Shown: positions 1 to 53,919 of the stretch, one piece after another
Position numbering within the stretch: position 1 is the stretch's first letter
Layout: each line of letters opens with the position of its first letter
From: Lingula anatina
Lineage: Eukaryota > Animalia > Brachiopoda
DNA: 64,000 nucleotides
Assembly: GCA_051362555.1 (NCBI GenBank)
Contig: CM120641.1
Coordinates: 12,524,001 to 12,588,000, forward strand
Direction: 5' to 3'
The notes under the pieces: generated by a model
What the model was told of the DNA's origin: nothing
Database searches by the model: none
The model's input: only the letters and a program-made list of their open reading frames with translations
Program-made: the position numbers and the translations under genes

Positions 1-1002
1 ATGACAGCCTAAGTACGGTTATAAGTTGGGTAACAATCACCATGTCATTTAGGGATTTATTGATTTTATGTCATATTGACTTATTAAATGCTTCATACAG
101 TACTTCAATGGATAAGATGAAGTGAACAATATTCAAACTTTAATTAGGATCACGGATTTAAGCCAGTCTCTTTAAAATGTGTTCTATGTTTCCATATTTT
201 CTAAGGAGGGTGTTCAATATTAACTTGAGTACAATATGACTCGTATAAGGTAGATGGTCAAAAGAGGGCACAAAATGCCTTGAAAATGCCCTGAATTTGG
301 AGCCAGGATTCTAAGAAATTTTTAGTATCTGTTCGACTTGTCACTCTGGTGCATGACTCCAACTGCTTGAGATATGTTATGCTGCCTCAGTTATCCCTGG
401 TGCTCCTATGACCTTTTCCAATACAGTTATGAAAGCGAGTTTTCCATGTCAGAGTATATTAGGTTGTAGAGTAAACTGCGGGTGGATGTTTGCTTGAAGC
501 ATCTTTGAACATGAGTGTTACATTTTCCACTTACGAAGTAGTATCCAATTAGTAAGTTATTAACATGCGGAAACTGTTCTTTTGATGAAACATGTCCAAG
601 AAGATTAGGGATTATTTGGAAGTGTTTGAATGTTTGTTGGTGTGTTGTGTAAAAGTGAATAAAAAATTTTAATGGTGGTGTTCAGTTAACTACAGTATGT
701 TAAGTGTTTTAATTGTAAAAGTTGATTTATTTTCAAGATAAGAAAGGGCCAGGATGAAGTGAAATAATTTTTGGAAATTTTAGTCACAAATTTTAATATT
801 TTTTGCTCATTTTCCTTTTTTTCTATTAAAATGAAGAAGTGCTTTTATTCATGATATTAATTGGCTGTTCTAAATTTGAAAATAAGATTTATTTCAGTTT
901 TGTGACAACAGAAAATAACATCAAATTTTTGGTTATGTCACTTATCTAGAATGAGTGGTCTTTTATTTGCAAGCATTTAGAACAGTTTTTTTTTCTTTGC
1001 AG

Positions 1003-1208
1003 GTCACTTGGTTCTTCAACGGTGAACCTATTGTTAGAAAAGAATACAGAATCATCATGGAGAGTGATCGCCACACCCTCTATATACAGGAGGTGCGCCC
1101 TGAAGACGCAGGCAGGTTTTCTGTATCAGCAGAGAATGCCTCTGGCAAAGCAACATGCTCAGCTCTCCTGGTAATGGAGGGTACTCCAGGTGTTACCTCT
1201 CCTACAAG
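1003..1208 (+). CDS. Exon, Ig C-terminal half (VTWFFNG...PGVTSPTR)
   Basis: ttgcag|GTC; AG|gtgaat; phase 0-2, matches next acceptor. Confidence 0.85.
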
Positions 1209-7200: not shown

Positions 7201-10200
7201 TTATATATATAGCATATTATGCTGTTTCTTTACCCTTCACCTGAATAATGTTTGATTGGCTTCAAAACTAACTTAAAGTACAGTGACTTTAGCAACTATG
7301 GGGTCATGATATATTTATGAAGTTAAAGCAGTTTATGATTTTGATAATCTGAGCCATGTTTCTGCAGACCCTAACACCTGGAAAATATAAAACTATAGTA
7401 GCTTCCTTCCTAATTATATTTATAGGATATATCAAATATGGCTCATCAATTTCTGTAGATTTAGAACCTGATGAAAGTAACAACTTTTAAAATGAACAAA
7501 ACACTCAAGATAGTTGATTAAATTTTTATCATATCATGCTTTAACCAATTTTTGCACTTTTTTAAACAAGAACAAGTTTGTCATTAACTATTGATCACCA
7601 TAACATCATGGTATTAGCTTCACACAAGAATGAATGACCTGGCCCTAAGTTAAAGAAGAAATTGAATTTGTCTCCCTTTATAAACACAGTTCTGAAATGA
7701 ATTTATGATACACCCTTTTTATGATATTGTTAATAGTTATTACATGTAATTAGTGAATGTGTCTATCCTCTCCTAGTCCCCACTGACAGGGAGCGTACGT
7801 CCCCCTCACCCCCAAGACCTTGGCAGCAGGTGCAAGAGACAACTAGGAAGATAGAACAGACTGTCTTCCTGTCTCAAGAGAAGAAAGTACCACACAAACC
7901 GGTGGCTCCACCTACACCAAAAGTTGCTGTGGCACCACAGAAACCAGTGGCAGCGCCACCACACCCACCGGCACCAAAGTATGCCAAGATGGGCCCTGAA
8001 CCAGGGATGCCTAAGATAATGAAGGTGAGTGAATCCCTTGATGTGCTAAAAGATTTATCACAAGTATAAGCTCATGGTTCAGTTACTGTTAGGAGTTGGG
8101 AATGATAACTTTAAGATAATCTTAAGAATATCTTGTTCTCTTTCCATGTTCTCTATCTTGTTCTCTTTCCATGATCATGAGGTTTAAAATGATGTACGGT
8201 GGTTCTTGGTTATCAGTTAATCATAACATAAAAATAGCATTTTAATTCAAGTGCCATAATAATGTTTGGATATTTTATTCTTTCTATGGTCATTAGGTTT
8301 TTCAATATTTCATAATATGAAAGTAACGTTCACATTATTTCAGCCTCTCCGCGACCATGTGGTACGAGAGGGCCACAAGGTTGTGCTGGAGGTCCATGTC
8401 CAGGCCGTCCCAGAGCCCATCATCAAGTGGTACAGGGAGGAGGTTGAGATCCACCACTCACCAGACTTCATGCTACACTACAGCAAGGGCATTGCAACAC
8501 TCACCATTGCTGAATGCTTCCCGGAGGATTCTGGGAAATACGTGTGTGTGGCTACCAATGCTCATGGGTCTCAGAGGACACAGTGCTTCTTGAGGGTTGA
8601 AGGTAAGATAAATAGGGATTTAAGAATTTTGAATGGCAATTTGAGATAAAATGGAACTATTGACATGGATTGTTGAAAGATTTTGTTTCAAATTTTTGGA
8701 ATAAAAAAAAAGAATCCTTAAATTTGTGTGTAATTAAGTTTATTTTTCTCTTGCTAGGTGCCCCAGTCAAACAGGCACCACCTCCTCCCCCCAAACCAGT
8801 GAAAGCACCACCAGTGCAGAAGATAGCAGCACCACCACCAGCTCAGAAGGTGGCAGCACCAGCTCCACCACCACCAGTACAAAGGGTGGCACCAGCACCA
8901 GTTGCACCACCAGCACCACCGCCGCCACCTCCGTCACCAAAGAAAAAAGCTAAGGGTGTGGTTCCACAGATTGTTGAGAAGCCGGTCAACCAACCCTTGT
9001 TGGAAGGACATCCGGCCATGTTTGCAACCCGTGTGACAGGTCAACCAACGCCAGAGGTCATCTGGAGCCACAGAGGACACCCTATCAAAGAGTCTACCAG
9101 GTAAGAATCTGTTGTATAGATTGTTGCAGATATGGTTATTTAGCTGATGAAATAGTGGCTTTTGTACAGTGGAGTGAATACTCCTTGTCAAAATATGAGT
9201 CAAAGTTCAGATTATTATATAAAATTAAAAAAGTGTCATTGGTGACTTTCCATTTAATGCAAATATGAAACTCCTTTAATCTGTCTGCATCACCAGACTC
9301 GGCAATGTATATTATTTGTGTTGCAAAAAAATTCACCATATGTCTTCACTTTTTCTAGACACAGAATAGATGTGGACGTCTTCACAGGGATCACTAGACT
9401 CCACATCAATGTGTGTTATCCCGAAGATGAGGGAGATTACACATGTACTGCAGTCAACCCAGTAGGGGAAAGCTCAGCCACTGCTTATCTACTAGGACAA
9501 GGTAATGATTGTAGTTTTGCAGACTTAAGAAACGGAAAAATTGTCATAAAATCTCATGATGCTTATACCGGTCATAAAAAATTATAGAAATCCAAATTTT
9601 TGTGCAGTTTTGATGGCTTGTCACAAAAGGATCTAGGAGTGATGTTGTGACTTGAAAATCTGTCTCACCTTGATGACAGCTTTCTTCTATGCTGTTGGAA
9701 ATGTTTGATATACCGGCCCTAGCATTGTCACAGTGAAACTTTTAGAGAACTGTTCACTCTATAAGGAATTGAGATATAAGAGGTGTTTATAACACTGTAT
9801 GAAACCATCACTTTTTGGCAAAATAAAAATCATTCCAAAGAATGCATTTGATATGAAAAGAAAAAGACAAACATCATCAACACCAGATATAACCAGTACC
9901 TTTCTCTGTTGTTATTCACCTAACTATACCATTTACATGATGGAATTCACAAGGGTGTGCTTCAGGTGTTGAATCTGTTATATAAATTTAGCTTAAGGTG
10001 TGATTTATCTGATAGCTTAAAATCTTCCCTTCAGTTTTAAATTATATGAGTCACTGTCTTGTCAGGAACTGAGTTTAAAACCATCATTCAACTGTACCAT
10101 TGAACTTAAGAGGCTCTTATCTTAGTGTCTGCTCTTTGATATTTGGAATTTGTGTGGGTTAGCACTCGTGGTTGATTTGTAAAGACCCACATATCATGGT

Positions 10201-13200
10201 TTGATTGGTTGTTATGAACTATTTTACTTGACAGGTAATTTGAGGTATTCAGTGTTCTGTCTTGAGTCAGACATGTATGTGATTACCTGTCTGGTTGAAA
10301 AAAAAAACTGCCTGAAGAAGTAGAAGTTTTTGTCACTTTTTAGCAGAATAGATTCTTCAATGCTTCATCTCCTGAAAGAAATGATAATTCTATTAAAATG
10401 ATTATACCCAATCTGCTGTACTTTTCTATAATTAAATTGAGTCTTTAAAGATACAAGTAGTCAGACGTAGCTATGAACATATAATATAGGTCATGTCATG
10501 AAACTTTACATATTTTTTTGAAAACTTTGTTTCCCCTGATGTAGGTAAATTCACAGAATGGCAAAGAGAAGAAGAGATGGCTAAGAGAAAAGCTCTAGAA
10601 ATGGAGAAGCAGCGCTCCCTGGTGTCAGAACTAGAAACCAGGATGACGTCTCCATTGCCCAAGAAGGCAGTCCCAGAATTCTTCAAGCCAAAGAAAGAAC
10701 CCACTTACATGTCTGATGTCTCCATGACTTCAGATGATGAGGCAAGGAGAAGGACACCAACTGGTCCACCTGTAAGTACAATATGCTTTCATGTTTGATA
10801 AAGCTTAGTTTCATTTTTAAAACAAAGTGATTGAATGATTGAAAATATCCTAGAGGATTTATTTTGAATTCATTGAAAGAATATTTAAAAGAAAAAGAAT
10901 CACAATCCAGGTACTCTGTTATGGTTGCTCTTATTTTTAAAGAGTAGCAAATTTATGTAGTATAGTTCATCATTTTTCATGATTTGTGTATTTCATTGTA
11001 GCACTTCAAAGTGTCCAAATTTGAAGAACGTTTGATGACAGAGATTGACGTCCGTGATGGTCGTACTACCAGTGCCAGTGAGGCAGAGTATGAGTCTGAG
11101 CCTCTAGACAGGAGTGTCTCTGACCGTCTGGCCAAGGCCCCAGAAATAGTGACCAGCATGAAGAACTTTAAGCTGATGGAGGGCAATGATGCTACATTTG
11201 TGTGCAGAGTAACTTCTCATCCCAGACCAAAGGTAGGCCAGGCCTGAACATGGTGGGAAGCTGGTATAGAGCATACAGTGTTGATTCATTGCATACAATG
11301 TTGTTTATGGTATACATTTTTGGGATGTGGTATATTCCATTCAGTTGGAAAAAATTTTGATTCTCATCTGTGAATAGTGAAAGCATAAGAAAATTCTATT
11401 TGGAAAACATATAATGTTATAATTTTTTAATATGAAAGATGCTTAGGTAAATGGAACACATTTTAACTACTTGGTTTAGTATCTCAGCTAACACAGTCTT
11501 TTCCGTTTAAACTCAGATCCAATGGTTCAAGGATGGAAAACGGATCTATGCATCACCCCGCATAGAAATCAAGTTTTCACCTGATGGCTATGTGACTTTA
11601 CGTATCAAAGAAGCACGTCCCGATGACACAGGGTACTACACCATGCTAGCCATTAACACTGCTGGCAAGGCAACTTGCAGTGCCGAGCTCTATGTAGATG
11701 CCTTGCCTAAGATTGATGAGAGTTCTTATATTCGACCAGAGTCACTTGCTCGAATGAGAAGAAGGTAAGTGTTCATATAATCTTAGTTTATGAAATGAAA
11801 TAGTTTGTAAACTTCCTGCTCATATGACATTGTACATTAGGCAGCCTCCGCTTTTTGTTTTTTTCTGGTTTTTAGCTGTTAAGTTTTAACTGATGATGAC
11901 AGTGAAAAATAACTATTTATAACCAATAGATGCTGAACAATTATATTCTGTTTCAAAGAAATGATACTTGGTAAAGATAGCTCAAAACATTCCCTGTCTT
12001 ATGTTCTGCTTACTCCTTAAGAGAATATGGCCATTATCTAAGCATTGCAATTCTACCTTTTTATTGTAGAGAGAGCAAAACATCTGTCTCCTCATTTGAA
12101 GGCAGTGAAAGTGGCACTGAGGAGAGACACTTCAAGCCTCGTTTTAGACAAGTCCCACAAGACCTAGAGGTCAGAGAGGGTCACGTGGCCAGGTTTGACT
12201 GTATGGTATCTGGCCGCCCCCATCCTGCTGTGGAGTGGTACAGGAATGGAGTGCATATCTTGGATGATGCTGTGCACAAGGTGAGAGGCAGTTACTGTAG
12301 TAAGGGGAGGTGCCTCAAAGACACTTCAGACACTCAGGCCTTCCCAACTACCAGACTCGGCACCTACGGGTCCAGAATAAACCGGTATATCTGACCACAC
12401 TACCCGTTTTCAAGGTGTGTGTCAGATCGCATAAAAGAGTGTCATACCCTATCACAAATTCTGTAAGCCTACCTGTCATCTTGGTATCGCGCCTCGTTTT
12501 CGTCAAGTAGGAGTCGCATGAATACAACAGACGACCCCCTCAATCAGGGGGTGGAAACGTGCTACTTATATGATTAAGACGAGCCTAGCCGTCAGTACCG
12601 GTTATTGTTTTGTGACCTTGAGGAGCAATTAGGTTTGGTCGTTGCGGCACGCATCAACAGTAGTTGAACTACCACACCTGGGTCTTTTGTTTTTGACAAC
12701 TGTTCACTCGTCATCGAGGCGCTTGTTCAAGACTACAGGCTGATATCTACTAGTACTACCAGTGGCTTCATTAGTAACGTTCCCACAATACTTAAGTTTT
12801 CTGTCCGTGCGTACAAACCCTGAAAAAGGACAGCCTCGCTGACGAGAACAATGGACGTTTCTCACCCCTCTCTAGGATTACCCCTGCCCTCAATCTCGTC
12901 CATCCCGGTAGTCACGAAAATATTTAACCCCCGACAGAATATGCTTCTGCTATCAAAATTAGGTCTACTTTTCTAAATTAATATATAAGTTTGCAAGTTC
13001 TTATTTACAAAACATCAATGGCTATGTCCGAACCTAAATTTTATGTTAAAAATTGCGGTACTGTCAGATTTTAACATAAACAGAGAAAATTGCAGCAGCG
13101 CATGAATCTAGATGAGATGCACTACTTTCCAACCCCGCTTAGGATCATTGCTATCACATCGCGCACCAGGCAAAATCGGTGTGGTGGCTGATACTCTGTA

Positions 13201-16200
13201 ATGCGATCTGACACACACCTTGAAAACGGGTAGTGTGTTCTGATAAACCGGTTTATACTGGACCTGTAGGTGCCGAGTCTGGTAGTTGGGAAGGCCTGGA
13301 CACTTTACCTCTGAAGATAACTTTCTTTAAAAAATAACCCACATCCTTTATCATCTTGTGAGTATATCTTGAGGAACTTTTTAATTGATTATGAAGGATG
13401 TTTACTTTACCAGTAATCACTAATCCACTGTATTTCAGGTTGTTGTAAATGAAGAAGGCGTTCACTCTCTGATCATCAGGGTGGTCACAGAGCAGGAGGC
13501 TGGTACTTACACATGCATTGCTACCAACAAGGGTGGCACTGACATGTTCCAGGTCAACCTGAACATACTGCGTGAGTGAACTTGTATTGTAGTTGTCAAG
13601 TTTTCTTTTTTTCATGCAGATATGTTGTTATTTATTTTTAAATAATTTTTTGAGGCTCTAATATTCAGTATCTATTTGGAATTATTTTTAGTGCTTATAG
13701 AATTGTCCAAATGTCAATTTGCTCTCTGTCAGTTTTAATGGTGGCATGTACTGCAAAAAGTATATGACCTTGATATACATTGCTAAGGGTAACTAAAAAT
13801 ATTGACCCTCAAAACAATGTTTCATTAAAAAATTACCATATCATTATGACAGAGACCCAGCACCTTATGCCACCACGTTTCACAGACCGCATGCACAACA
13901 TCTCCGTGAAGGCGCACACACCAGTCACCTTCCACTGCGCAGCCACAGGCGTCCCAGTGCCCATGATGAGCTGGCAGAAGGATGGCATCTACATCACCCC
14001 CACAGACAAGTACAGGGTAGAGACAGACCAGGGCCGATCTTCTCTGTATATTGATAACCCCGATGGCTCTGATAATGCCTGGTTTCAGTGCTCTGCTGTT
14101 AATATCGCTGGCAGTGCATCTACCAGGGCCAAGCTCACTGTAGAAGGTAAAAAGAAGGAATGAATGGAATTATTGTGTATGCATATGCTTGTTATTTAGA
14201 TAAATCAAAATTAACTGTAACAGGTAGGCTCAGGATCTGCAGAATATTTTATTTTTGTTTAAACATATTGATAACTGTATGTTTCTGAAATTCGTATGAT
14301 GGCACTAAGAAGATCTTATTTGCAAAGGAAAAAGGAAAAAAGTTCAACTTTAAACATGACTATCACTCTGTAGAACTAATAGGGGTATTAGCTGTGTGTT
14401 TTTGACACCCAGTTAGGGGTAATTGGATTGTTAACTGACTGGCACCTGGACAGGTGATTGACTCAGTATATTAGAGATAAGGTCATCCATTTCTGTAGTA
14501 ATAGGGTCTTTGTCCAGGTGTGGTCCAGAAAGTGTCAGGTCATTTTAACTTCAGCAAATGCTTGGATCATTTCTGCTTTCTTGTGTATTGTATCATAGCA
14601 AGACACCTTGATTAAGTATGGTAAAAATGGATGGTTTTAAAGGCTTGGGACTAAAATTGAAGATCTTATAAATTCATTTCCAGTCGAGACTAAGAAGAAG
14701 GAACCAGAAAGGAAACTGAACATTCCCAAGGCCAAGGCTGTGGCACCAGGGTAAGAATAAACTTAATTTGAATGATAAAATGCAAACACTTGTGTAAAAT
14801 TTACTACAAATAAAGAATTGTCTATATTTGATATTAAAGTGAGACAGAATGTTCCTTTTCAGGTTAAAAACTCCTGTTTAAAACTATGTAGCTGGGTGAC
14901 AGACATGCCAGATGTCAACATTTATTATATTTTTTACTTTGCAGACTTTGCTTTTTTTTTTAGACTTTTAAACATGTTGTATTACAGGTTAGTTAAATTT
15001 GCTATATGAAGTTAAAAAACAGCAATATGCTATTTCAGACAAAGAGATATTGACTTACAATAATATGTGGTGACTGAATTTTTGATAGCGTATTTACAAT
15101 GGTATTGATAGATACAACTGAAGGTTTTTGTGATTTTTGACCATCTGCCATTTATTGTAGCACACTGCCTGTCTCACCTGCACCTATTGCCATACGCAGG
15201 ACTGAGGAAACAATGGAGGTAGACCTGGGGTCCCCACCTGGCTCCCCAGACAAACCTGACCCGGGCTCCCCTCCATATTATCAGATCATAGGCTACTCTG
15301 ACGAATATGCTAGTGGTGTCGCTAAGATTATAAACTATGTGGATTTGCCAAGGTTTGATGTGGCATGTTCTGAGTTTCTAGATGTGGTACATGCATGTCT
15401 GTTGTCGGTTCAGCGTAAGAGGTCTAAAGCCCCCGTTTCTTTGGTCTTTTCTTATTTTGATAGAGATGCTCTTCTTCTCACCTGAGATGAGCATGTGTAT
15501 TTCCCTGCACTCTGTCAGTGCTATTTCGATGCATGATGTGAAGCACATGAAAAATGAAACCTTTTGGTGCTTTTTGCAAAATCTGTAGACATTTGCAAAG
15601 GTAAATCATTAGATTTGTATATACGCATGTGACCTTTAAGTAGCCATTTTATATGGCCTACTTTGGAAACTTCTTCAAGTTTCATTGAAGAAAATTCAAC
15701 TAAAATTTCAGGGGCATGTTTAGATATGTAAATAGAAAAATCATTCTGTTGTGTTTCTGTGAAAAGATGAGAGGACATGTTAAGGCAGATCACCTGCATG
15801 CCAGTAGAAAATTGCACTGCAATATTTTAAGCTGACATATAGGCTTAATTCTTTCTATATACTATACTCCCCTTCTCTCTTCTCTTCTCTGTAGAGCAAC
15901 TTCTCCTGATCTTCCACCTATCACTATACTACAGTTAGACAAGGAGCGTAAGATGCTGAAGATTGTATCACCTCCAAGTTCTCCAGTTAAACTTAAGTCA
16001 CCACCTACTTCACCTGTTAAGCCAAAAACACCACCTGTTGTGCCAGCGAAGCCGAAATCACCTCTGGTCTCACCAGTTATGCCCAAAGCACCACCAAGTG
16101 CACCAGTTAAGGCCAAATCACCACCGTGCACACCGGTGAAAGAAAAGTCACCACCTTCCTCACCACTTAAACCAGACCCTGGCTCTCCTCCTTACTATCA

Positions 16201-19200
16201 GATCATTTCCTACTCTGATGAGAATGCATCTGGCATAGCTAAGATCACAGCTTACACAGACTTCACAAGGTTTGCATAGATGGCATGTTTGTTGTGCATG
16301 GTCCAAGTTCAAAGTACAATTCTTGCTCTTCTGAAAAATTGTTTCATGAACTGTACCCAAGATGATGAAGGTGTTTATTTCTACTGATGTGTAAACAATG
16401 TTAGCAGATACATTCTATAGATCTCAAGGTAACTGTTAAAACCTTCTTATAGTGGAGTTCTAATCCCTTGGAAGAAGTTGTAGACTGTTTGTAGACATTC
16501 CCAACACTCTTGAGGAGGAATTAGTTTTAACACTTTTGCTTATCTTCATATTTGCTCCACAGAGAATTGCAGGAGATGCTTGAAAGGCACAAAGAGGAGT
16601 GGCTCATTCCTATGAGCCCTGAATCTGCAGAGGGAATCCCCACAGAGAGGTCCATGATGGAGATAGATCTACAGAAATCAAGGTCTGTTGGTATTTGCAT
16701 GGTGTGGAGATGGAAAATAAATTACTTTATTCCAACCATAGATTTAGAAACCACTAACTTTATTAAGGAGTGTAATTAGAGGTCAAAGCATGGATTTATC
16801 TTCTTTTCAAGATTGAAGTCAAGCAGATTATATTGCTAGTGTGATTACCAAAAGCATGCCAAAAATTGAATTAGGTCTGCTCTCAAGTAATGTGAAAGTA
16901 ACAAGCATGTGATTTCCTGCAAAGTGATGAAAAAGGGTGCGCATGATACTTTTTGATTGAACTTTATTCAAAAGATTTGGTTACAAGATTGTACTTTTGA
17001 GAAAGGAGAATGGAGCAGTAGTACTAGTAATCAGATCATTGCCAATAATTGACCTTTGTTTTCACCTTCAGTCCTGAGCCCGATCTATATGCCAATGGCT
17101 ACCAAAGCCCTCCTCCAAAGGATGTGCCAGTCCCATCAAAGGGAGGCCTACCTCACAGTTTGTCAGAGGCCAAGATGACTTTGTTGAACTTCCTGCCTCA
17201 TGATATCTCCCAAAGACCTGAGCCGACAGTTGCTTTTGCATTTGGTGACAAAGGTCTTGAGATGTTCCCTCATGAGACCCAGACCCCTCCAACCACCCCT
17301 AACCCTGAAGCTGATATCAGTCTCCCCCATTGGAAGTCTCAGGGTTCTGTCCCTCCTGCTATTTACCCCATGGAGGTAGATGCTGAAGACATTGAAGATA
17401 ATATTATGTCTGATAAACCTTATAAGCCATGGAACAATGGAGATTTGGATGAAGGAGTTCAGTGGAATGGAGTCCAGGAGGATGGTGATGTTTTCGATGT
17501 AGACATGAGGTGCTTACCTATTCTCTTGGCATGGTAGACTCACTGTCAGTATTTTTGCAAGAAAGTCATTTCTGTTCAAAATAGGGACATATCACCTTTG
17601 TTATCATTATATATTTATGCAGTTGATGGTTGTGCATTGAAAGCTTGGTGTAGTGTCACTTTTGGTCGGTTTTCATTCTTGGTTCACTTTCACTTCGGTT
17701 CAAATTACTGTATAAAAATTATGCAAGGCATTTTAATCTGTTCTTGGCCAAACTGGCACTGGTGTGCATGATGTTCTCAGATATTCCATATCAGGTGTTG
17801 GTGGTTGAGTTATGAAACTTGGATAGATAACAGACAGTAGATAATTCACTCAGGCTCTTTTTCTCTCTTGGCACTGAATGATGAAGGTTATTGTAATATT
17901 ATCAGTGAATAATGTCAGTTGTATAATGCAAGATAGCACCTGTTGTTATTGTTCGTTGGTTGGTCCTCAACTGTATGGATATCATCTTCTGTTACCAACT
18001 GTTACTATTTTTATTGTTTTTTGTTTTTTGCATGGAGGCATTGGATTTCATGTTAAGGGCTGAAGATGTTTGACTGATGGCTTATTGATCTGTTTCAAAG
18101 TGTTATTGCTATGCGTTGTGATCAAAGTTTATGATAAGAAAATGTGAGCTATGCTGAACATTGATGCATAGATCATGTAAAGGAGGATTTTGCTTATTTG
18201 TTTCTGTGTTGGTTCTTTACAACCCAATAGGTATTAATGCAATGCTAATCGTTTCTCTTTCCTACATCATTTTGATCAGCATGGTTTGAGTAGTTTTTAA
18301 ATCATTTGACCTGTATTCATAATTTCTAACTTTTTCCATATTCTAGATTTAGTTTGTTTTTCAAGGTCGTTTTGTTGTTTTGAAGCATGGAGCTTCCAGC
18401 AGAGCATGGCCATTGATGAAATGAAGAGAATAGTTATTTAATCCCATTTTGTTCTTTCCTTTAGGGAGGAGGAGGAAGAAGAGCCTAAGCCTCATTGGAT
18501 GGTTAAGCTAAGGTTGATATTCTTTTGAAGCTATGCAAATGAAATAAATACTTAACATAATTAAGTTTACATATTAATTTCATTACAGCGACAGTAACAC
18601 TGTTATTTAAACATTGATCTATACTTGTACTATGCATACTAAACTTTCATATTTTCAAAACTTGAATTGTAACATTTATTATGTACTCCTAATATCTTCT
18701 TAACACCTTAAATCACTTCTTCTCTTTTAATTTTTAGCAACTTTCTTATTTAATTTATACCTTTTTCTCACCTTTGAATACTGCTCTTTTTAACACACCT
18801 CTGGTTGTCTATTAAGGCACGTAGAGCGCTACTCTCCACCTGCTCCTGAGTCTCCCACTACTCCTGTTAAAACAGAGGCTGCGCCTGAAATCAGGTTTGT
18901 TCCCATGTGGTTGTCTGTCTATGGACTGTCTATCTGTCAAAGTGTAACAAAAGGCTGAGCCAATATGATGTTGAAGTTTGAATAGGTTTGTGTTTGTCAT
19001 GTTGATAAGTTCTCAATGAAATATTGTTATTCCATGTCAGCAGCAAGGCAACATAAACTTCAGATTGCTTAAGAAGGACACAACTTTTCCAAAACTTAAT
19101 ATATCTTACTTCCATATCAATTGTTAAATTCTTACTTTTCTTTTTGTTCTTATTGCCTTCTACATTTCATATGCTTGTCTTCTTCTACTTCCAACTATCT

Positions 19201-22200
19201 CATTTCAGACCAGTTCAGGCACCTGTGCTCCCCAAGCCAGCAGTGGCTGCCTTCACTCCTCCAGCACCTCCACCACCCAAACCTGTCACTTTCAAGGTGG
19301 TACCTCCTAAGAAAGCTCCACCTCCAACTGCCCCTAAGCCAACCTGGGCTGAGCTGGAGTTTGCTCCACCACAGCCACCTCCAGCTCCTGTCAGGAGGCG
19401 CCCTAAAACCATATCTAAAGTAGAATGGCCTCCTGCACCTGTTCCTGCAGAAACTGCAGAGTGGGAGCCTCCTGATGTGCTGCCACCTATTGCAGGGGCA
19501 AGCCCAGGATGGAGGCATGTCAGTGCACCTGTAGGTGGGGTTTCTATTGTCCCTCCCCCGGCACAAGGTGGGTTTGAACCATCTGGTGTACCACCTTTTG
19601 TGACTTCAGAAGGTTTTGAGCCGAGGTCGATGGAGCCTAGGCAGCCATCTCCACCTAAGCTGGTTGCCGCCCAAGTTTCTTTTGACAAGAGGTCTGTCTT
19701 TATTTCTTTGCTTGCCTTTGACCTTTTAGTATTTTCTTTCTGCTCGATAGTTCCTTTAAATCTGTTTCAGCATAGTGAGTTGGCAATTTTCATCATAACT
19801 TTTATTTAATAAGTTATCATGTTTGAATATTTTAGTTGATTTTTCAATGTTTGATTGCATGCATTTTTAGTGAAGAAGTTAAGGCAGATGACTTTGAAGA
19901 CCCTAGCATGATTCAACAAGATTTGGATCCTGTAACACATTTCCAACAGATATCTACTAAAAGCATTGATGATGATGATGATGATGATGATTATGATGAT
20001 GTTGAGCTTTGTAATAGAGAAATAGATGTTTACAGTGATGCTGGTGGCACTGAACAAATTGGTGCAGTTGTTATTGGTGATGACCATGCTGACCATGAAC
20101 TTGATGGCAGTACTCAGATAGTCAGTGAACAAAGACATAATGTTACTGAGACCAGGGTTCAAAGTGAACAGATTTTTGAAAGTATAGAGACGGATAATGC
20201 AGTCAGTGGACAGGATGACACTGCTATCAGTGTTGATAGTGAAAAAACTGTGCATACTGTTGAGCATGCTTTCAAAAACTTTGAGCCAACAGATTTTGAT
20301 GATGTTGTGGATGATTTTAACTCTGGTAAATTGAGTGTGTCAGTAACAACTGCATGGAGACCCCTGTCTGATGATGTTTCCCAGAAGCCCTTCGAAGATA
20401 TTCCTCAGCAGAAAACTGAAGTCACAGTTGAGCAGATGGCGCTGCAGCAGGAAGATGACAGGTGCGCCATCTATCTGCTAATACATACTGGGGCAGATGG
20501 GGCAACACGAACACTTGCTTATAATAACAAATGCTTAAAGTTATGTCTAACAAACTAACGGTCATTTTATTTCAGAGGAGAGTTTTCTTAATTTTTGCAT
20601 GTATTTTGCTCTGCTTTAGGGACTGCTTATATATCCAATTATAGCCTGGAGTATAAGAGGTTTTCCTTTTGAAGAGAATCTTGCTTTGAAAATGTAATGC
20701 TTTCCAACTTTCAGGATTTTCTGTTGGCTTTGGTTTATTAAAACTTTAGTTACAGACTGCAATTATATTTAAATCAGGTGGCATTTGGTGTTGAGGATTG
20801 CTACACTCTATATTTCTTGCTGGGAGAAGCTTTTGCTTTATGATCTATTGGCCAGTAAAATTTAAATGTTTAACTTTAAAATTACATCTCTTATTGTATG
20901 TGCTATGACTGTCTACCACAAGTGCACACACACATTCAAAAAACGGATATATTAAATTTATTTTGAAGATGATACAGGGTAAGCGTGTGTCATTCCTTTA
21001 TTGCTGTTGTGACATTTCAGACCTGGTGCCCCTCCTGCGCCAGCGCCTACCGCCTTACAGGTGGTCTCTGTGGACACTCCAACAGAAAGGTAGCATTTTC
21101 TGTTCATTGCTTAATGCTTGGTATCATATCATGCTTGTACAATTGTCTTTGTCTACTGTCTCACAGCACTTTTAACCATATATAAATAGGCATCAATGTT
21201 CTTTTTACTTATAACAGATTCCAAACAACCCATTATTTATTGAATGGTGATCGTTATTTGGATGACCATTAAGTGAAATCAAATGCCCATGTTCATAGTG
21301 CTTTGGCTAACCCATCACCTTTTCTATTGTTTATTTGTCAGTTTTGATTTTTATCTTCTACTTATTATATGGCTAAAAGTTTGGCAGTGTATTATTGAGT
21401 GTATAATCTTGTGATATACCAGGCTTTATGTATGAACATGTGCACCGCTTCGCCAGTTTCACATCATGGGAGAAATGCTTTAATGCTTATATGTGCTTAT
21501 TGTCTTGTTTAACTGCATATCCTAAACTGGCAGGTTGACTTAAGTCAATGGAATATCATTGCAGTACTTACTTAACTTACTTACTTAACGAAAGGCATTT
21601 AATTGTATGCAAATGTTTCCTTTACCGTTCTTCTTATTTTTTAATGTTTCAGTATTTGTTTACATGTTGAAAATTGTTTAACAAACTGCTATTATGACTA
21701 ATCTTAAATGTTTCCTTATATTATTATATTTATAAAAGCTATGTTTTTGCATGCATTTACAGCTTATAGCTTAATATTTCATGTTAACTTATGTTTCACC
21801 TCTAATTGGGTCACGTTTTTGGATCTCAGTGTAAAAGCTATCTTTAAAATAAATGTGCTTGCTTGTTTTGTCTGTTTGGTTATGGGGTTGACACTTATGT
21901 AATCTGTTTGCTTGTATGTTAATTATAATTTCTAATTTTTATCATTTTGCACATTGTTAGAGTTATAGACTGGTAAACACATATTTAATGATCACTGTTT
22001 TGCTTATATCATTCTTCAGATTTTATACATTCTATGATTTTTTTTTTTGTCATTTTTTAGGTATTATTGTAGTTAAATAGTTGCAGTTTTTATGATCATT
22101 TTCTGTATGTTTTTTATGAATAGGTTTATGTTCATATCATTTCTATTGTTTATTTTTCATAAAAAAGCCATTTATTTTATGATACCGTGGTATACCATTG

Positions 22201-25200
22201 CGTTATTATATGTAGAGTGAACAGAAATGACCTTCCTATTATATAATTCTCTGGCCAGATGTATTACATGGAATCCACTGTGGCAATTTCAAGTTGACAG
22301 AGAATCCAGATTGCTTATAATCTCTATTTATTCCCTATTGTAGAACTGCACCATGGAGGAAGGCTAGACCAACCACACCCCCTAAGGTACCCCCTAAGCC
22401 AATGAGGGTGACTATTCCAGTAGGTGCACCTGTCCCAGGGGCACCACTCCAGGTTTCCACAGAGAGCAGAGTTTTACCAGAACAGCCCACTGCAGAAAGG
22501 TTCATATCGCATGACCTGTGTGCAGTTGTTTTCTCATTGTTATCATTTATTTTAATTGGTTTTCAGCCACCCCACCCTGCATGCTTCATTTTTGTTTTCA
22601 CCGAGTCTGTGTTTAAATATGGATTTTTCTTTTTGTGTATGAATGTGTAATTTTGTGTATTTTTGTTTTAGCAAAGGGAAAAATATCAGTTATCACCCAG
22701 ACATGCTGCACTATGTTAGAGATTCAGTATTTGAATTGCTTTGTGTACAACAAACCCCATGTTGAATGTAAAAAGTGACTGTTTTTTTTAAATTAAAACC
22801 TTTTCATTTACTTTGCCATTCTCCTTATAGAGCATTGCCATTGCTTAATACTTAAATAGATGTTTATTTAGTACAAACTTTGCTTTTTGCCTTGAATTTT
22901 TTTTAATTGCCTAAAAAATTAATTCACACAAAATCGCTTTTTGCTTTAGAGATACCTAAGTTAGGGTTTATTATTATTATTTTGCACATTTCACATTTTT
23001 TTATTTTGACTAATAAGTATGATTTTGAATAGATGCTTTTTTTCTTTTAAAAATTGCCTACGTAGTGATATTTTTTTCAGCATCTTTTTTCTAACAAATT
23101 TTTATTTGCTGTAAGATGTGAATTCTTATCCAATTTTACTTTATTTTAGTTGCTATTTTTAATCCAATTATCATATAGAGAACTTCAAAATAATTTCAAA
23201 GTAGAAAACAATAACAGTTAACTTAGCTGTTTTTTAGCAACAAGTATCTTCTGTTGCTTCATCTTTTCTCCTATATGTTTGACTTACTTAGACATAACTT
23301 AATTATTTTACAATTTTGGCGAGATGGCAGTTCCAGTTGGAGAAATTGGTAATGAAAGGGTTTTTGGGCTGTTTTGAGTAATACCAGTTAACAAAGATTT
23401 TTTCCTTTCTGTCACTGAATTCTCTCCTGAATAGAGTGAAACTGTATGTGCGAAAAGATTTGTCTAAATGTCTTTTTCTCCCATTCTCTTTCCTTTGTGT
23501 TTTTCCCGTTACGTGCACAGGGAACCCTTCAAGCCTCAAAAGATGAGGAAAGATGTGTTGATCCTGAGATCATCCAGGTTAGATCCTATGAACAGTTTGT
23601 TAGGTGTGACATTCATTGTGCTGAATGTGATGCTCAAGCGTGCTGTGATATATATATTCAAAGTTTTGGCTCAAAACCTCTTCTGAGTTTCAGTGCAAAT
23701 ATTATAATTCTGGTAAAATGTTTCCAGGCTTGAAGCTAAAAGGAATGATGCTTTTTGATATTCAGCTTCCATTAATTAATTAATTTGGAGATGAAACATT
23801 GTTATTTCATTGAAAAAATCTACCAACTTTTCTCCCATTTTGGTAATCACAACCTATTGTTAATCTGACCTGCTGCTTTGGTGAGACGCAACCACCTGCT
23901 GCCATGGTTAATTCTTCTCTTAATGCATATCAGACATACCTATCATTTTCTGCTCTCAGCTAATGCAAAATCTGGCATTCCTTCACATAGAAAAGTCCAT
24001 GGTTCCACTTTGCTTTCATGTTGCACACTAACTGTAAATATTGTAACTCTCATCAGTGAAGGAAACAGTCCCCCCCCCCCCCCCCCCAAATGAGTTTTGT
24101 GTCATGATTTCAGTGCTGTCAGTTTTGATTTCAGGTTCTTGGCAATGTTCACTTAATTATTACCCACTCATTGCTATTTTCCAATTGTTTTCCAGGTGTG
24201 TTTTGTTTTACATTGTTGCATTGTCTGCATGAGAATCCTCACATTTTATAATCCCATTGGTGACAATTCTGCATGTATGCCTGGCTATAACCCAACCTTG
24301 AGCTTGTCCTTGATCTTATTTAACCAATTACTCATTTACCATGTGATCATTTCAGTGGTGCTGCAGCTCACAAAGAATATATCCTATATGGGGAGCCACC
24401 AGCTCCAGCAGATATCTATGACAAGAGCAAACAGAGACCTCCAGAGTTCAAAACAAGACCCAAAGACTTGCCACAACTGGTAGAGACAGATGCCGCCCAT
24501 TTTGAGTGCCGCCTGGTACCAGTGGGTGACCCACACATGGTGGTGGAGTGGTTCTTTAATGGACAACTTCTCCGTCATGGTAAGTCATTTGGAAGAAAGG
24601 GATATTTCAAGGGAGTAGGATAGCCATTTTGATTTTTAACCAAAGTGTGATCTTGACTAACTGGGAAATTTAGCTTACACCTGTTATTGCAAAAAAAAAA
24701 AAAAAAAAAAATGCGGTATATTTTATTAGCATGTTTTCAAGCCTTCAGTTTTGTGGTGAAATAAGTTATTCTATCACTGTTTAGTTGCTCTCTGGCTCTT
24801 TATTGTTATGAAAAATGAAACTGATTTTTCTTCTTATTTCAGGGCATCGTTTCAGAACTACTCATGACTTTGGTTTTGTTGCTCTGGACATACTGTACAC
24901 CTACCCAGAGGACTCGGGAGAATATGTTGTCAGGGCCACTAACTACTACGGTACTGATGAGGCTAGGGCAGTACTCAAGTGTAAAGGTGGGTGCAAAATA
25001 TCCATTGTAGGAGGTTTTTACCATGAATAATGATGATGACACCACAAGAAACCTTGCAACACTTAAATACTTGAGTTCAGGTGAAGGAAGCGAATTGTTC
25101 AGCCATTTATCTTAAAAATTTATCACTGACAGGATGTCCGTTTTGATGTTTTATTGCTGTTTTACTCACTGTGTAGGGTAAATTTATCCTTGAGTTATGC

Positions 25201-28200
25201 CAGATCACAATGTAACCTATCTACAACTTGAATTCTATGCTGGGACAAGTAATGAAAGCTTTCTTTGTGTCTAATACTTTTCATTCTATTTTAATCTTTC
25301 AGGCAAGCGTTCTGTGATTATGGAAACACAACTGCCTGAAGGCATGGAAGGAGTCCAAAGATTGCAGCAAATGGAGGAATGGATGGGAATGTGAGTCTTG
25401 TTTTGCTCAGATATCTTGTCTTGGGTCATAGAGACATCTGTTGGACTGCTTGTCAACTAAGTATTTCTCAGAGATGAATTTATCATATACTAATAGCAGT
25501 TTAGATCCCTACTATTAGTCAAAAGTCACTGTTTTTTTTTTTTTTTTTGTTTTTTTTTGTGAATCAAAAGTTGTTGCTTTTATAATTGTAGACCCAGAGA
25601 TGAGACTGATGCAGAGAAACCCAAACCCAAAGAGCCACCCAGATTTGTCCTTACCATGGAAAGTGAGGAGGTAGAGGAGGGGGATACTGCCAAGTTCATG
25701 GTGAAAGTAGATGGACATCCCCGTCCTAGAGTGACTTGGTGGCACAACCAGAGCATTGTTAGAGATGTAAGTGGTGCAGCTTGTCTTGTTTTGAATTGTG
25801 TGTCTTATGAGCTTTTTAATTGTGAAAAAAATATTTCTCAGTAACACAGGTGTGTAGTTATAGTAAAAATGTCAAGTGGATGAGGTTATTTATCATGAAT
25901 TTATAAGACATGTTAGATCTTAGCATGCAGTTCAGCTGCCCAGAAAAGATGAAATTTTGTCATTAGTTAAGGAAGGTGAAAAAAAAAATGGAAAGAAAAG
26001 ATACCAAAGGTGTATAATGTATACTTAAAAATTTGTTGTATTTTTTTGCAGGGAGCCAGATTCAAGATCCACTATGATGGTATGATCCACTACCTGTACA
26101 TTCCAAAGTGCAGAGAGTACAACCAGGGTGAGGTGCGCTGTGTGGCCAGGAACACGGAGGGACAGGTCGAGTGCTCCACCACCCTCAAGGTGAAGCCTCA
26201 AGAAGACTGGAGAGCCAGGCTGAAGAGAACTCCAGAACGTATGTCTTTTTTTTTTATATATGTGGTTGGAATATGCTTAAGTATATATGTATCAGAAAAA
26301 TTCAGTTTGATTTACACTGAACAACATTATTTGGATTTAATGGAAAGAAGATTTAGTATAAAATCCCGTATATTTATTTATAGCCATGTGGGGAGTAGTT
26401 ACAACCCATGGACCCAAGGCAGTAATTGAGAGCATAGAGGTCCTGGATAAGATCATGAAACCCAAAGATAGATCACAGATCAGGCAGGTTGAAAAAGGTA
26501 AGGAATTAAATATTGATACACATACAGAATTGCACTGTGTAGACAAAGTCTTGTTTAAAATGTTAAATCTTGGGGTTGCAGAGTTTCTGGTTGTATGTTA
26601 TCCCATTTTCTACCAAAAATTCATTTTAATCATTTTAGAAAAACAAGAGAAGATCAGTGCCTATGTTGTCCCAGAAAACAAGATGGCGGAGAGGGAGCTT
26701 CTTCAGACCCATGTTGACCTGCGCCATGCTAGCGCCACAAGTGATCTACTGCGCCACTCTCCCACAATGGAGACAGATGCAGAGGTACACATTGAAAGAG
26801 CTAAGGTACAGCTAGCAGCAGAAACTGATGAGGGAGCAGAGGCCAGGAAGAAGGTATGAATAAGAAGAAGCTGTTTCTGTGTGTGTGAAATCAAATAAGA
26901 CCTTAACATATATGCTGTGTTCTTTTGATGACATTGTTCACTTTGCTGCCAATGTGATCTACCAATATTATATGCAAGATCAACATAAGCAGTTTACTTA
27001 TTTTATTCTGTCATATTTAGGCCCTGCTAGAAAGAAAAGAGCCCCCAGTTTTCACGAAACCTGTGGAGCCCATCAAGACCAAGGAAGGGGTTGCTGTCAG
27101 GTTTGACGTGGAGTTCACTGGGTTTCCCACTCCAAACATCACATGGTACAGGGACAGCTTCCAGATTCAACCTTCTAGGGACTTCCAGGTATGGACAAGG
27201 GATAAAAAGAAGATTATGATTGGTTTACTTTTTTTTTGGTAAAAAATTCCATCATCTATAATGGATTTTTTGAAAATGACAGCTTAGAACAGAAAGTAGG
27301 ATGAGAAGGGCTGGTTTGCTAACTGTGGAACTCTGGTATTGGAAACAGGTACTAATTGTGACATTTTGTTTTAATGCCGTTTCAGATCTCCACTCAGTCG
27401 ACAAAGAGCACCCTGTTTATCCCAGAGGTGTTCCCAGAAGATGATGGCATGTATACAGTGAAGGCATCCAACCCATATGGCATGGTGGTCAGCAAGGGTA
27501 AACTGACTGTGCTGCGTAAGTGACATACATTTGATAATAAATGTATATAATAAATTGATCATTACATTCTTGTTGAATAAGTTTTCAGATTGCTACTAGA
27601 TAGAAATATTTTAGAGTGCTTTTTCTTGTTGAATAAGTTTTAAGAGTGCTATTAGATAGATATATTTTTTGCAAAAATATGATAATTGAATGATTTTCTC
27701 ATCTTTTGAAATTATTTGCATTTCTCACAAGAAATGGCATAAAGCACTTAACAGAGATGCTGCAGATGTATCCATTTTCCTTGAAAAAATTATAACCATA
27801 TTGCTTTTAGATCACCTTTCATGAAATACTCACTGTCACAAATACAGATCGCTGTCACTGTCATGATTGACAACCGTACTATTTTAGCTGCCGATGTTAA
27901 GGATGTGAAGAAAGACTCTCCCCCAGAGTTCCGTATCATGCTCAGAGACACCCGTGTGATAGAGCACCACCCAGCGACATTTGACTGTCAGGTACTGGGA
28001 CATCCTACACCAACTGTCTTCTGGAGGAAGGTAGGATATGTATTGAGTTTAAGGAATACATTATACTTGATGATGTTGATGATTAGAAATGTGAGGAGCT
28101 GGAGGATAATGGTTTCTATAGTAGTGTGTTAGTGGTGTTTATTATAACAACAATAATGACATTTGACTGTTTGTACTACATTTGTTAAGTATGTACCTTT

Positions 28201-29579
28201 TTGGTCCATGCTTTTTTTATTATGATTACTTGCTAAAATTTCTGTAAGAAATATCCCCATTATTTATCATGGTGGTTCCCTGACATCCAAAAAACATAAA
28301 ACTTTTGGTGTTACAACTGACCTTTATTTTTATCAGAATGGCAAGAAACTGGAAGAAAACATCCGCTGGAAATTCATTTATCCAGAACATGAGCATGGCA
28401 GCCATACCTTCCTGATCTATGAAACGATGCCTGAAGACCAAGGCACATATGAGTGCATTGCTGAAAACCCAACTGGCAAGGCTACATCCGTGGCCAAACT
28501 GACTGTGGAAAGTAAGAATGATTCTTATTTTTAAGTGATAGGTATTCAGAAAGAGCAAAAAAAAAAAAAATAGAATAAAATAAATAATAATAAATAAATA
28601 AATAAAATGAAATGAAATGAAGGTCTTTTTGGAGTGTTGAAAGAACTATCAAATGACTAAACTGGGCTGCAGATCTGGACATCCACTAGATAATGAAATC
28701 AAATTCATTATTGTTTGTGTGACAATTTTGTGTTTAGTCCATTTGAAATTATGATTGACTAAGATGCAGTTCAAAAATTTCATTTTAAGAATATCCCCCC
28801 TTGTTATTTTAGCTGCCAAAGTTCCAGCAACACCAGAGACTCCAGCCCCTGAGCAGAAAGTCCCCCAGGTGGCGCCAAAGGTAGATCTCAAGATGGTGGA
28901 CCTGACTGTAAAAGAAGGAGAAGTAGCCACTTTCAAATGCAAGATTACTGGATCGCCAAGTAAGCATGTGGAATGGCAGTGGCAGAATAAAATATAAAAG
29001 TGGTGACAGGGTGTATTGCAAATTGGCAAAACTTACACAAATTCAGCATGCTTAAAATTTAACAGTATATTGAAATAGCAAAGTTTTATATTTGATAACT
29101 TAAAACATTTTACAATACACAGCATTATGTCTTCAAGCACATTATTTTTGTCATCTAATTTTGGGCTCGCAGTGTCTGTCAGTAGGTGTAATAGGTGTTA
29201 GGTGTAGGTGACTAGTTATTGTAAGTCTTAATATAGATAAAAATTGTGTATAAATAGCTGGATATTGAATAATCTTCATAAACTTGACTTTTTTGTTGTT
29301 TAAGAAATGATATGGTTATTTCTTATAGCCCCAGTTATTACCTGGTACCTAGACAACCAGGTCATCAAGCCATCCAAGTACTTCAAGATGGAGACTGTGG
29401 GTCCTGTCCACACCCTGACTGTCACCGAGGCCTTCCCAGAGGATGAGGGGCAGTACAGGTGTACTGCTGTCAACCCCAGTGGAGAGGCTTCTACCACAGC
29501 CTACCTCAACATAATAAGTAAGTTGATTGGGATGCAGAAGGTGCATTTTACTCTGGCAAAATAAGACTGGCTGATTTCA

Positions 29580-29623
<44 letters not shown>

Positions 29624-53600: not shown

Positions 53601-53869
53601 AATGATATGGAGTTTTAGGTGGGTTTTTTTCTGATATATTTATTGATTATTTGAAATTATACTTGCATTTTTGCATTTTAAAAGAAAATATTATGTAAAA
53701 CACAATATTATGCAATGGTTTGTGCATATGTTCTCATAATTGTTTTTATAGCATGTTTTTGATAATAAAAAAGGTTTAAATGCTCCTGATGCATGTGCCA
53801 TGTGTGAAAATGTCAATCACTTTTATGTATGTGGGTGTGGTTGTTCAAGTGTAAGTTTGCACAGTGTGA

Positions 53870-53919
<50 letters not shown>

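Follow-up and report, generated by a model that had tools for sequence, protein, structure and literature searches.

An alternatively spliced bank of symmetric phase-2 exons in a titin linker of the brachiopod Lingula anatina

The window analysed here is a 64,000-nt stretch of the Lingula anatina genome (GCA_051362555.1, contig CM120641.1, positions 12,524,001 to 12,588,000, forward strand), and all coordinates are counted from its first letter. Ig exons are found all along it, in the tandem-Ig arrangement of titin/connectin, and the exons flanking the region of interest match Pfam I-set; the end of the window falls within the gene. Bat titin (P0048) and a titin-like protein of Saccoglossus (P0058) match collinearly at 13.8–14.1, 24.4–24.6 and 24.8–25.0 kb, with an additional match of P0048 at 26.0–26.3 kb, and the Ig-linker-Ig block is, as judged from these protein matches, orthologous to that of the named titins. 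The Ig upstream of the linker (62–63% identity with gastropod proteins) is by comparison of this kind orthologous to the Ig in the corresponding position in titins of vertebrates, hemichordates and arthropods. The motifs at the two anchors, EPERKLNIPK and YGE..DIYDK, had been placed about 20 aa apart in vertebrate titin by a sequence-only reading of the window, and are separated by 19 residues in bat titin. With A3 as a single-sequence homolog query, 1 match was obtained; a profile search was dominated by arthropod kettin repeats, and searches limited to 2000 aa retrieved no full-length mollusc or annelid titin covering both anchors. In a one-domain tree, the window clustered with a gastropod and related loci at a support of 91/91, which falls short of the threshold applied.

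Table 1. Features of the exon bank and its flanks (positions within the window)
Feature	Position	Strand	Properties	Evidence
Upstream Ig (I-set) exon	13855..14146	+		Pfam I-set E 1.5e-19; joined to A5 in 62 and 59 reads
A5, 5' anchor exon	14684..14750	+	67 nt; from phase 1 into phase 2; donor GTAAGA (strong)	RNA joints to E1 and E8
E1	15161..15352	+	192 nt; GCATG at donor +11	Joints A5-E1, E1-E2, E1-E3
E2	15895..16269	+	375 nt; basic, Pro-rich, 13 SP/TP sites; true cassette	Included in X4/X5, skipped in X8/X9
E3	16563..16682	+	120 nt; acidic; in proline chain	Joints E2-E3, E1-E3, E3-E5
E4	17072..17509	+	438 nt; candidate exon	Sequence alone; bypassed in all listed joints
E5	18465..18512	+	48 nt; Glu-rich	Joints E3-E5, E5-E6
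E6	18817..18894	+	78 nt	Joints E5-E6, E6-E7
E7	19209..19691	+	483 nt; 29% Pro	Joints E6-E7, E7-E9
E8	19871..20461	+	591 nt; net -43 (acidic); alternative to E1 as the exon following A5	A5-E8 joints
E9	21021..21089	+	69 nt	Joints E7-E9, E9-E10, E9-A3
E10	22344..22499	+	156 nt; Pro-rich; GCATG at donor +10; co-skipped with E11	RNA joints
E11	23521..23577	+	57 nt; cassette	Joints E10-E11, E11-A3, skip E10-A3
A3, 3' anchor exon	24356..24579	+	Donor GTAAGT; linker end and first half of single kettin-type Ig	
Densest intronic GCATG zone	15353..18464	+		20 of 27 intronic copies

Between the anchors lie 11 non-Ig exons (E1–E11), whose lengths, AG acceptors, open phase-2 frames, multiple-of-three sizes and terminal AG, as claimed from the sequence, were all confirmed in the DNA, as were the GTAAG donors of both anchors and the donor hexamers of the bank (GTTTGA, GTTTGC, GTCTGT, GTGCTT, GTTGAT, GTTTGT, GTCTGT, GTGCGC, GTAGCA, GTTCAT and GTTAGA, from E1 to E11). 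The further claim that every junction codon is Arg or Ser holds as far as the exon-final AG is concerned (11/11), and fails at the first junction, where A5 ends in GG and gives Gly. Donors were compared with 21 Ig-end donors of the window (20 from protein motifs, and those seen in RNA): a pyrimidine at donor +3 was found in 8/11 bank exons versus 0/21 Ig-end donors (p = 1.6e-5), AG at donor +4/+5 in 1/11 versus 14/21, and the exon-final AG of the bank in 8/21 Ig-end exons. The exon-final AG probably just compensates, in the ordinary way, for donors that are weak on the intron side. The 3' part of E1 is duplicated with the end of E2 (71% DNA identity across 143 nt), and apart from these ends the bank exons are mutually non-homologous. 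No extra strong coding exon between the anchors was found by a phase-blind exon scan trained on the window, or in read depth. Two other donors, one for E1 at 15414 that looked stronger and one for E4 at 17375, were rejected, both being frame-shifting and absent from RNA.

The insert had also been described as disordered and of low complexity. Low complexity was borne out, and no Pfam family was matched above cut-off by the seven longest exons, which were those scanned; charge-hydropathy, on the other hand, placed E1, E2, E7 and E9 (4/11) on the ordered side, and the disorder reading is retained because proline is abundant and Pfam domains are lacking. Faint Pfam matches on E3 and E8 (E ~0.1, far under cut-off) were taken as chance. 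The insert of the main chain contains 42–52% P+E+V+K in every 250-aa window, passing the PEVK rule of >40% in windows of that size (PMC12063666); E4 (0.34) and E8 (0.27) fail it. The PPAK motif occurs 0 times in the insert, with no such Pfam match on the seven longest bank exons. Within the proline insert, 43 PxxP and 26 SP/TP sites were counted.

RNA evidence was taken from seven runs (of X1–X9, without X3 and X6), each sampled at 6–30%, as short reads in which exons are unphased, X4 and X5 being the deep runs. Joints confirmed the exact predicted boundaries at both ends for 9 of the 11 exons, and for E8 on the acceptor side, showing that the bank consists of real, alternatively spliced exons in the titin linker. 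No E4 joint was present among the listed joints of the seven runs, with a depth of 0 in X4/X5 and of ~1.7 in X7. In X4/X5 a single main chain was observed, E1-2-3-5-6-7-9-10-11 (526 aa, 23% proline), bypassing E4 and E8, with 33–85 reads on 8 of its 10 joints, 20/38 on E10-E11, 59/59 on E11-A3, and 0 on A5-E8. Inclusion joints of E2 carried 52–85 reads in these runs, and its skipping (E1-E3) was seen in X8 (6 reads) and X9 (2 reads). E11 was ~90% included in X4/X5, the E10-A3 skip having 4 and 5 reads against the E10-E11 and E11-A3 counts above, and joint skipping of E10 and E11 was seen as E9-A3. Both exits from A5 were used within single runs in X7, X8 and X9 (A5-E1 2/7/3 reads, A5-E8 6/3/7 reads), which also drop E2, E11 or E10+E11 at times. 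The A5-E8 reads of these three runs stem from few independent starts (2, 1 and 5), and the runs come from a diverged population, with many near-fixed differences from the window. In a separate study, X1 had depth on E8 and almost none on E1–E7, and X2 had the proline exons and no E8, both from few reads. Of the insert range of 0–869 aa proposed from the sequence, the upper figure agrees with the sum of the 11 exons (869 codons), but neither extreme was seen: among the listed joints there was no anchor-to-anchor joint (the 0-aa form), and neither the E7-E8 joint nor an E4 joint that an 869-aa form would need.

The introns of the bank contain 27 sense-strand copies of GCATG in 6998 nt, compared with 7.9±2.8 in shuffled sequence (3.4-fold, z 7.3; 0/1000 shuffles reach 27), while for the reverse complement the count is as expected by chance (9 vs 7.7). 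GCATG is the top enriched 5-mer after a poly-C run, and no excess was found in the constitutive stretches of the window. A copy lies ≤45 nt from the donor in 5/11 bank exons (E1–E4 and E10) versus 0/21 Ig donors (p = 0.002), and E8 carries TGCATG within its acceptor tract and three GCATG inside the exon. By motif count, this sense-strand enrichment is that of RBFOX-regulated cassette exons. RBFOX proteins are reported to promote inclusion when bound downstream of an exon and skipping when bound upstream (PMC11216089), and the positions fit this rule for E1, E2, E3, E10 and E8, with a misfit at E4 (downstream motif, skipped in deep runs). The placement at five donors and at the E8 acceptor would fit an RBFOX switch.

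The explanation we prefer, with a probability of about 0.62, is that a symmetric exon bank lies in an old phase-2 intron of a lophotrochozoan-type titin, and is spliced either as a Pro-rich chain (with E2, E11 or E10+E11 optional) or via E8, a choice that is likely set by RBFOX and is predicted to make a flexible spacer before the kettin-type Ig longer or shorter and to change its charge. Where RBFOX is active, it would promote the weak donors of E1–E4 and E10 by binding the GCATG that closely follows them, and would block E8 by binding TGCATG in its acceptor tract and the three copies within it; where RBFOX is low, the weak exons E1–E7 would be bypassed and A5 joined to E8. MBNL-type YGCY sites may assist (TGCTT is enriched). 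More tentatively, the proline insert of 330–526 aa could act as a PEVK-like spring and docking region, and the 197-aa E8 form as a shorter acidic spacer in different muscle or cell types.

The sequence-only reading had instead proposed free mix-and-match, with exons chosen independently to give hundreds of forms and up to 2048. Every subset of the 11 exons does preserve the frame, three skips (E2, E11 and E10+E11) look independent, and sampling was shallow, joints being known from the listed ones; however, these comprise 14 of the 78 possible forward joints, giving six complete paths and one E8 path without a seen exit, and include no lone skip of E1, E3, E5, E6, E7 or E9 and no skip-all joint. 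With ~50 reads on a joint, the probability that a 10% skip escapes both X4 and X5 is 0.016 (0.30 for a 5% skip), and free combination is regarded as highly improbable. An essentially constitutive, lineage-specific spacer, whose minor skips are noise tolerated through symmetry and whose E8 and E2 differences reflect population or species, would account for the one chain in X4/X5, for the divergence of X7–X9, and for the mostly strong-donor symmetric exons without GCATG excess at two related loci (L003 and L016). Against this stand the comparable counts of both A5 exits inside each of X7, X8 and X9, the difference between X1 (E8) and X2 (proline exons) within one study, though on few reads, and a strongly non-random motif placement, which together make a constitutive spacer very unlikely.

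The E8 path could also end in E8, as an alternative last exon in which read-through of the weak GTGCGC donor gives a short titin. No joint or loose end leaving E8 is listed, against 16 reads entering it, and past the donor the frame is open for 31 codons to a stop near 20556, with ATTAAA at 20737 and 20951; on the other side, the oligo-dT runs show no accumulation of reads past E8 (depth 0 at 20652–20985), the acidic composition stops exactly at AG|GT, and with reads ~10% divergent in 3' E8 and few independent starts an exit joint could escape. We consider this ending quite unlikely, and in-frame rejoining of E8 to downstream exons is assumed in the preferred explanation. Finally, the switch could be real and depend chiefly on a factor other than RBFOX (CELF/Bruno, MBNL or RBM20/24-like), GCATG playing a lesser part. 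The Drosophila titin (sls) events tested are reported as Bru1-dependent and unchanged on Rbfox1 knockdown (PMC8742874), TGCTT is enriched (37 vs 21.7), and five of the included exons (E5, E6, E7, E9 and E11) have no GCATG close to the donor. A different main driver is nevertheless unlikely, given that GCATG shows the strongest non-homopolymer enrichment (z 7.3), at positions matching inclusion or exclusion for the five exons named above.

Arthropod-like loci (L056 and L058) have an intron of the same phase in roughly the same position, and from this comparison the host phase-2 intron looks ancient. The linker is 53–58 aa in vertebrates, a hemichordate and arthropods, and is longer in a gastropod and at related loci, which carry symmetric phase-2 exons of their own. 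L030 has six candidate 3n phase-2 exons, five of them ending in AG, and 15 GCATG versus 8.6 expected (7/300 shuffles reach it); L003 and L016 have three conserved symmetric exons, mostly with strong donors and no GCATG excess. We infer that the phase symmetry reflects exon birth and duplication in this intron and not a combinatorial code, because the exons settled in one old phase-2 intron and those of L003 and L016 are symmetric despite mostly strong donors and no GCATG excess. A possible common motif, plausible by position, was noted in the E1/E2 ends, one L030 exon and three repeats of a Haliotis insert. Its cross-profile scores are not significant (E 1.7 and 15; E1 against L030, E 0.009), an Atlas search with the repeat gave no usable match, and the apparent sharing is treated as a lead only. 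E8 is fast-evolving by its variants, 16 of the 18 listed changing a residue.

Vertebrates and flies are well known to tune titin through splicing, and the bank may work like titin PEVK or Z-repeat splicing, at a site not found described: in the literature searched, no description was found of the splicing of this linker or of mollusc/annelid-type titins. In the PEVK of vertebrate TTN and of Drosophila sallimus (exons 31–32), low-complexity P/E/V/K-rich exons are reported to be spliced in or out to set spring length (PMC12063666, PMC5874998). The main insert shares with it the 40% PEVK window rule, but the bank sits close to the N-terminal Z-line block, in a conserved linker of 53–58 aa between two Ig domains, and not in the main I-band PEVK, has no PPAK and an acidic alternative exon, and its exons are mostly unrelated to each other. 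We take this linker to correspond to a position within human TTN exons 14–36. Those exons are reported as constitutive in adult skeletal muscle (PMC5874998). Titin Z-repeats (TTN exons 8–14, with 11–13 variable) are small, variably included exons proposed to tune the Z-disc (PMC7370890, PMC5874998, PMC12241362), and the bank resembles them in being variably included and in belonging to the Z-disc portion of titin; Z-repeats, however, bind alpha-actinin, are homologous to one another and lie between Ig Z2 and Z3, whereas the bank exons lie several Ig domains further on, lack Pfam matches above cut-off (7/7 scanned), and are non-repeat save for the E1/E2 ends. The bank is followed by an Ig of the kettin type, and binding to actin and alpha-actinin is reported for kettin Ig-spacer units (PMC3207145); but arthropods repeat this Ig many times with a short linker, and here there is one copy with an expanded linker. 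As in the RBFOX-regulated muscle cassettes metavinculin exon 19 and paxillin exon 7, where clustered intronic GCATG has a position-dependent effect (PMC11216089), GCATG clusters around alternative exons; here the regulation predicted from motifs would have to affect a block of several exons together with the exon that competes with it. The novex-3 terminal-exon titin isoform is a possible parallel for E8, yet there is no 3' end evidence at E8. Unlike a Dscam-type mutually exclusive array, nine exons are included together and the exons are non-homologous.

The splice choice likely tunes muscle spacing or elasticity, and may, as the sequence-only reading proposed, adjust Z-disk or dense-body binding by muscle type. 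On a wider and rather doubtful reading, lophotrochozoan titins may have gained a second, Z-proximal spring by exons filling one ancient phase-2 intron, where deuterostomes and arthropods kept the 53–58 aa linker, with one RBFOX-read switch choosing between an acidic, fast-evolving spacer and a basic Pro-rich spring that can reach 526 aa, and marking different muscle types (obliquely striated as opposed to smooth or catch, for instance). The bank cautions that phase symmetry by itself does not amount to combinatorial use, and illustrates the growth of a symmetric exon bank inside an old intron. It is a compact, testable case, with one intron, two competing exits, a motif map predicting the direction of RBFOX action and a linker length fixed in other bilaterians, and it would provide isoform markers for spiralian muscle types.

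All 11 cassette exons (E1–E11) that the sequence-only reading had placed between the 5′ and 3′ anchor exons (A5, A3) of the titin linker were present with the lengths and donors it gave, each open in phase 2, of 3n length and ending in AG, together 869 codons. RNA joints were counted in seven of the nine runs available under the species label (6–30% of each run read), of which X4 and X5 are deep and stranded. Joint reads in X4/X5 followed the proline chain: A5–E1 47/44, E1–E2 52/52, E2–E3 81/85, E3–E5 49/33, E5–E6 36/33, E6–E7 62/48, E7–E9 58/41, E9–E10 45/57, E10–E11 20/38 and E11–A3 59/59, with E10–A3 at 4/5 and A5–E8 at 0/0; depth was 0 on E4 and at most 0.5 on E8, versus about 38 on E7. 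One more joint, beyond those listed alongside these, is probably E9–A3, which qualifies in X7. In X7/X8/X9, A5–E1 had 2/7/3 reads, A5–E8 6/3/7 (A5–E8 starts 2, 1 and 5), E1–E3 0/6/2 and E9–A3 3/1/1, X2 adding two E9–A3 reads. In X1 a handful of reads covered E8 and hardly any covered E1–E7, and X2 showed the opposite pattern. Among the joints listed for the seven runs, none involved E4, left E8, joined E7 to E8 or joined A5 to A3.

Nine of the 11 exons were thereby borne out by RNA joints at both ends, E8 at its acceptor and E4 at neither end. The proposed mix-and-match use is supported as several routes, and is not supported as free combination, with at least 14 of 78 possible joints seen; the joints listed allow six complete paths, plus the E8 path, and insert lengths of 330–526 aa (four of the six computed). 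If a chain exon were skipped at 10%, the skip would escape notice in both X4 and X5 with probability 0.016; at 5% the probability is 0.30, so rare splice forms are possible at this read depth.

Coordinates and properties of the anchors, cassette exons and candidate exons
Feature	Position	Strand	Remark
A5, 5′ anchor exon	14684–14750		
E1	15161–15352		
E2	15895–16269		
E3	16563–16682		
E4	17072–17509		
E5	18465–18512		
E6	18817–18894		
E7	19209–19691		
E8	19871–20461		acidic
E9	21021–21089		
E10	22344–22499		
E11	23521–23577		
A3, 3′ anchor exon	24356–24579		
Small acidic open exon candidate	51662–51784	+	good acceptor, stop at end
Candidate terminal exon	52347–52572	+	TTTTTAG acceptor in front
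L030 (related locus) inter-anchor candidates			six 3n phase-2 exons (96, 117, 36, 27, 372, 60 nt), five AG-ended

The reference set for the cassette donors was 21 donors of exons that end Ig domains within the window. A pyrimidine at +3 was found in 8/11 cassette versus 0/21 Ig donors, AG at +4/+5 in 1/11 versus 14/21, and exon-final AG in 11/11 versus 8/21; intronic AG was present in 12 of the 13 Ig donors without exonic AG. Exonic AG offsetting weak intronic bases is the usual compensation within a donor and, because of this Ig-donor pattern, the AG ends are most simply ordinary donor compensation, not the suggested guard against stops. The AG ends themselves stand, but junctions are not always Arg/Ser, the first encoding Gly because A5 ends in GG.

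The bank introns (6998 nt) contain 27 copies of GCATG, against 7.9 ± 2.8 in 1000 dinucleotide shuffles (none reaching 27); the reverse complement is at chance level there, and GCATG shows no excess in window stretches 1–13850, 24580–30800 and 32000–41400. Copies lie 10–20 nt past the donors of E1, E2, E3, E4 and E10 (5/11 versus 0/21 Ig donors, p = 0.002), one TGCATG lies within the final 15 nt ahead of E8, and three GCATG lie within E8. Since, according to PMC11216089, the motif favours inclusion when downstream of an exon and skipping when upstream, this placement would predict both observed routes, proline chain and E8. E4 is skipped despite GCATG after its donor, five included exons have none close by, and the fly sls events tested depended on Bru1, not on Rbfox1 (PMC8742874); for these reasons we only infer RBFOX control of bank splicing from the motifs. 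A second dense GCATG cluster, without obvious exon inside, lies at 31050–31711 (+) (10 copies versus 1.5 expected in 30850–32000; 0/500 shuffles), and may be a deep-intronic regulatory element of a nearby exon. Further downstream, the candidate terminal exon encodes acidic sequence followed by 19 hydrophobic residues (mean hydropathy 2.7), with the stop roughly 10 residues beyond them; a titin isoform ending there might be tail-anchored in a membrane. The surrounding 50420–57900 is also enriched in GCATG (14 versus 6.6). The small acidic exon candidate is possibly another alternative end.

The exons flanking the bank encode I-set Ig domains (Pfam), the downstream one of kettin type, and bat titin (P0048) and a Saccoglossus titin-like protein (P0058) align collinearly across both anchors. 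Best named matches were gastropod proteins for the upstream Ig (62–63%) and for A3 (P0061, 59%), and a one-domain tree grouped the window with gastropod proteins and loci L003 and L030 (support 91/91); on these matches and this grouping the gene is named, by sequence, a lophotrochozoan-type titin. Elsewhere on the + strand, very long open exons at 42534–49409 (2292 aa) and 59858–64000 (over 1380 aa) hold Glu/Lys-rich tandem repeats similar to those in the elastic parts of I-band titins from invertebrates, and at 7737–9101 two more linker exons, again proline-rich, separate Ig domains upstream of the bank.

Of 13 proteins measured, nine had an Ig-to-Ig linker of 53–58 aa (those of bat, lamprey and Saccoglossus, two from named insects and four others), one had 131 aa and another 39 aa (pattern match probably early), with the pattern unmatched in two; skipping the whole bank would leave 49 aa, a form not among the joints listed. 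Of 28 genomic loci inspected, a set with much redundancy, 27 have a phase-2 acceptor ahead of the A3-like exon; an A5-like exon with a phase-2 end is present in L003, L016 and L030, and arthropod-like L056 and L058 each carry one short intron, also of phase 2, displaced by two to four codons from the same place. Between the anchors, L003 and L016 each hold three 3n phase-2 exons, conserved between loci, with mostly strong donors and no GCATG excess, and L030 shows a mild GCATG excess and six candidates from DNA only (three plus one low-scoring hit by phase-blind scan, two by eye). L028 looks spliced and contains a proline-rich insert, Haliotis P0303 has >300 aa of proline-rich sequence past an A5-like motif, and E1 and E2 carry a duplicated end (71% identity over 143 nt). 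Because of these loci, inserts and duplication the bank is, as judged from sequence, a lineage trait that grew within an old intron; we infer that a new exon in a phase-2 intron keeps frame only if 3n, regulated later or not. P0303 also repeats a short motif (361–427, 609–642) like the E1/E2 end and L030 exon 3505–3600, a likeness by eye and position with a non-significant profile score.

The bank works like titin PEVK and Z-repeat splicing (PMC5874998, PMC7370890, PMC12241362), but its exons are not Z-repeats, it lacks the PPAK repeats of PEVK (0 in the dominant insert), and its organisation is not that of a Dscam-type array. Among the papers listed by searches of freely accessible literature, none dealt with how this linker, or titin of molluscs or annelids, is spliced; titin serves as a striated-muscle marker in Platynereis (PMC5167519).

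The seven longest cassette exons matched no Pfam family above cut-off, and by charge-hydropathy 7/11 exons plot as disordered. The dominant 526-aa insert is 23% proline, with net charge +9, PEVK residues at 42–52% in every 250-aa window, 43 PxxP and 26 SP/TP; E8 has net charge −43 and no PxxP. Near-fixed differences set the X7–X9 reads apart from the window at many sites; these runs probably come from another population, and may represent a separate population or cryptic species. Among their best-supported variants listed, 2/16 in flanking exons, 6/15 in proline-chain exons and 16/18 in E8 change residues (E8 versus flanking, p = 1.4e-5). Across 19871–20300 the reads differ by up to ~10%, nearly all non-silent, those in flanking Ig exons being nearly only silent. 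These counts point to low protein-level constraint on E8, or positive selection, and its variability suits a spacer in which charge and length outweigh sequence. If sallimus, with its PEVK splicing (PMC12063666), and the actin-binding Ig-spacer units of kettin (PMC3207145) are taken as analogues, the insert would most likely determine how far the kettin-type module lies from the N-terminal Ig block and how compliant the connection is.
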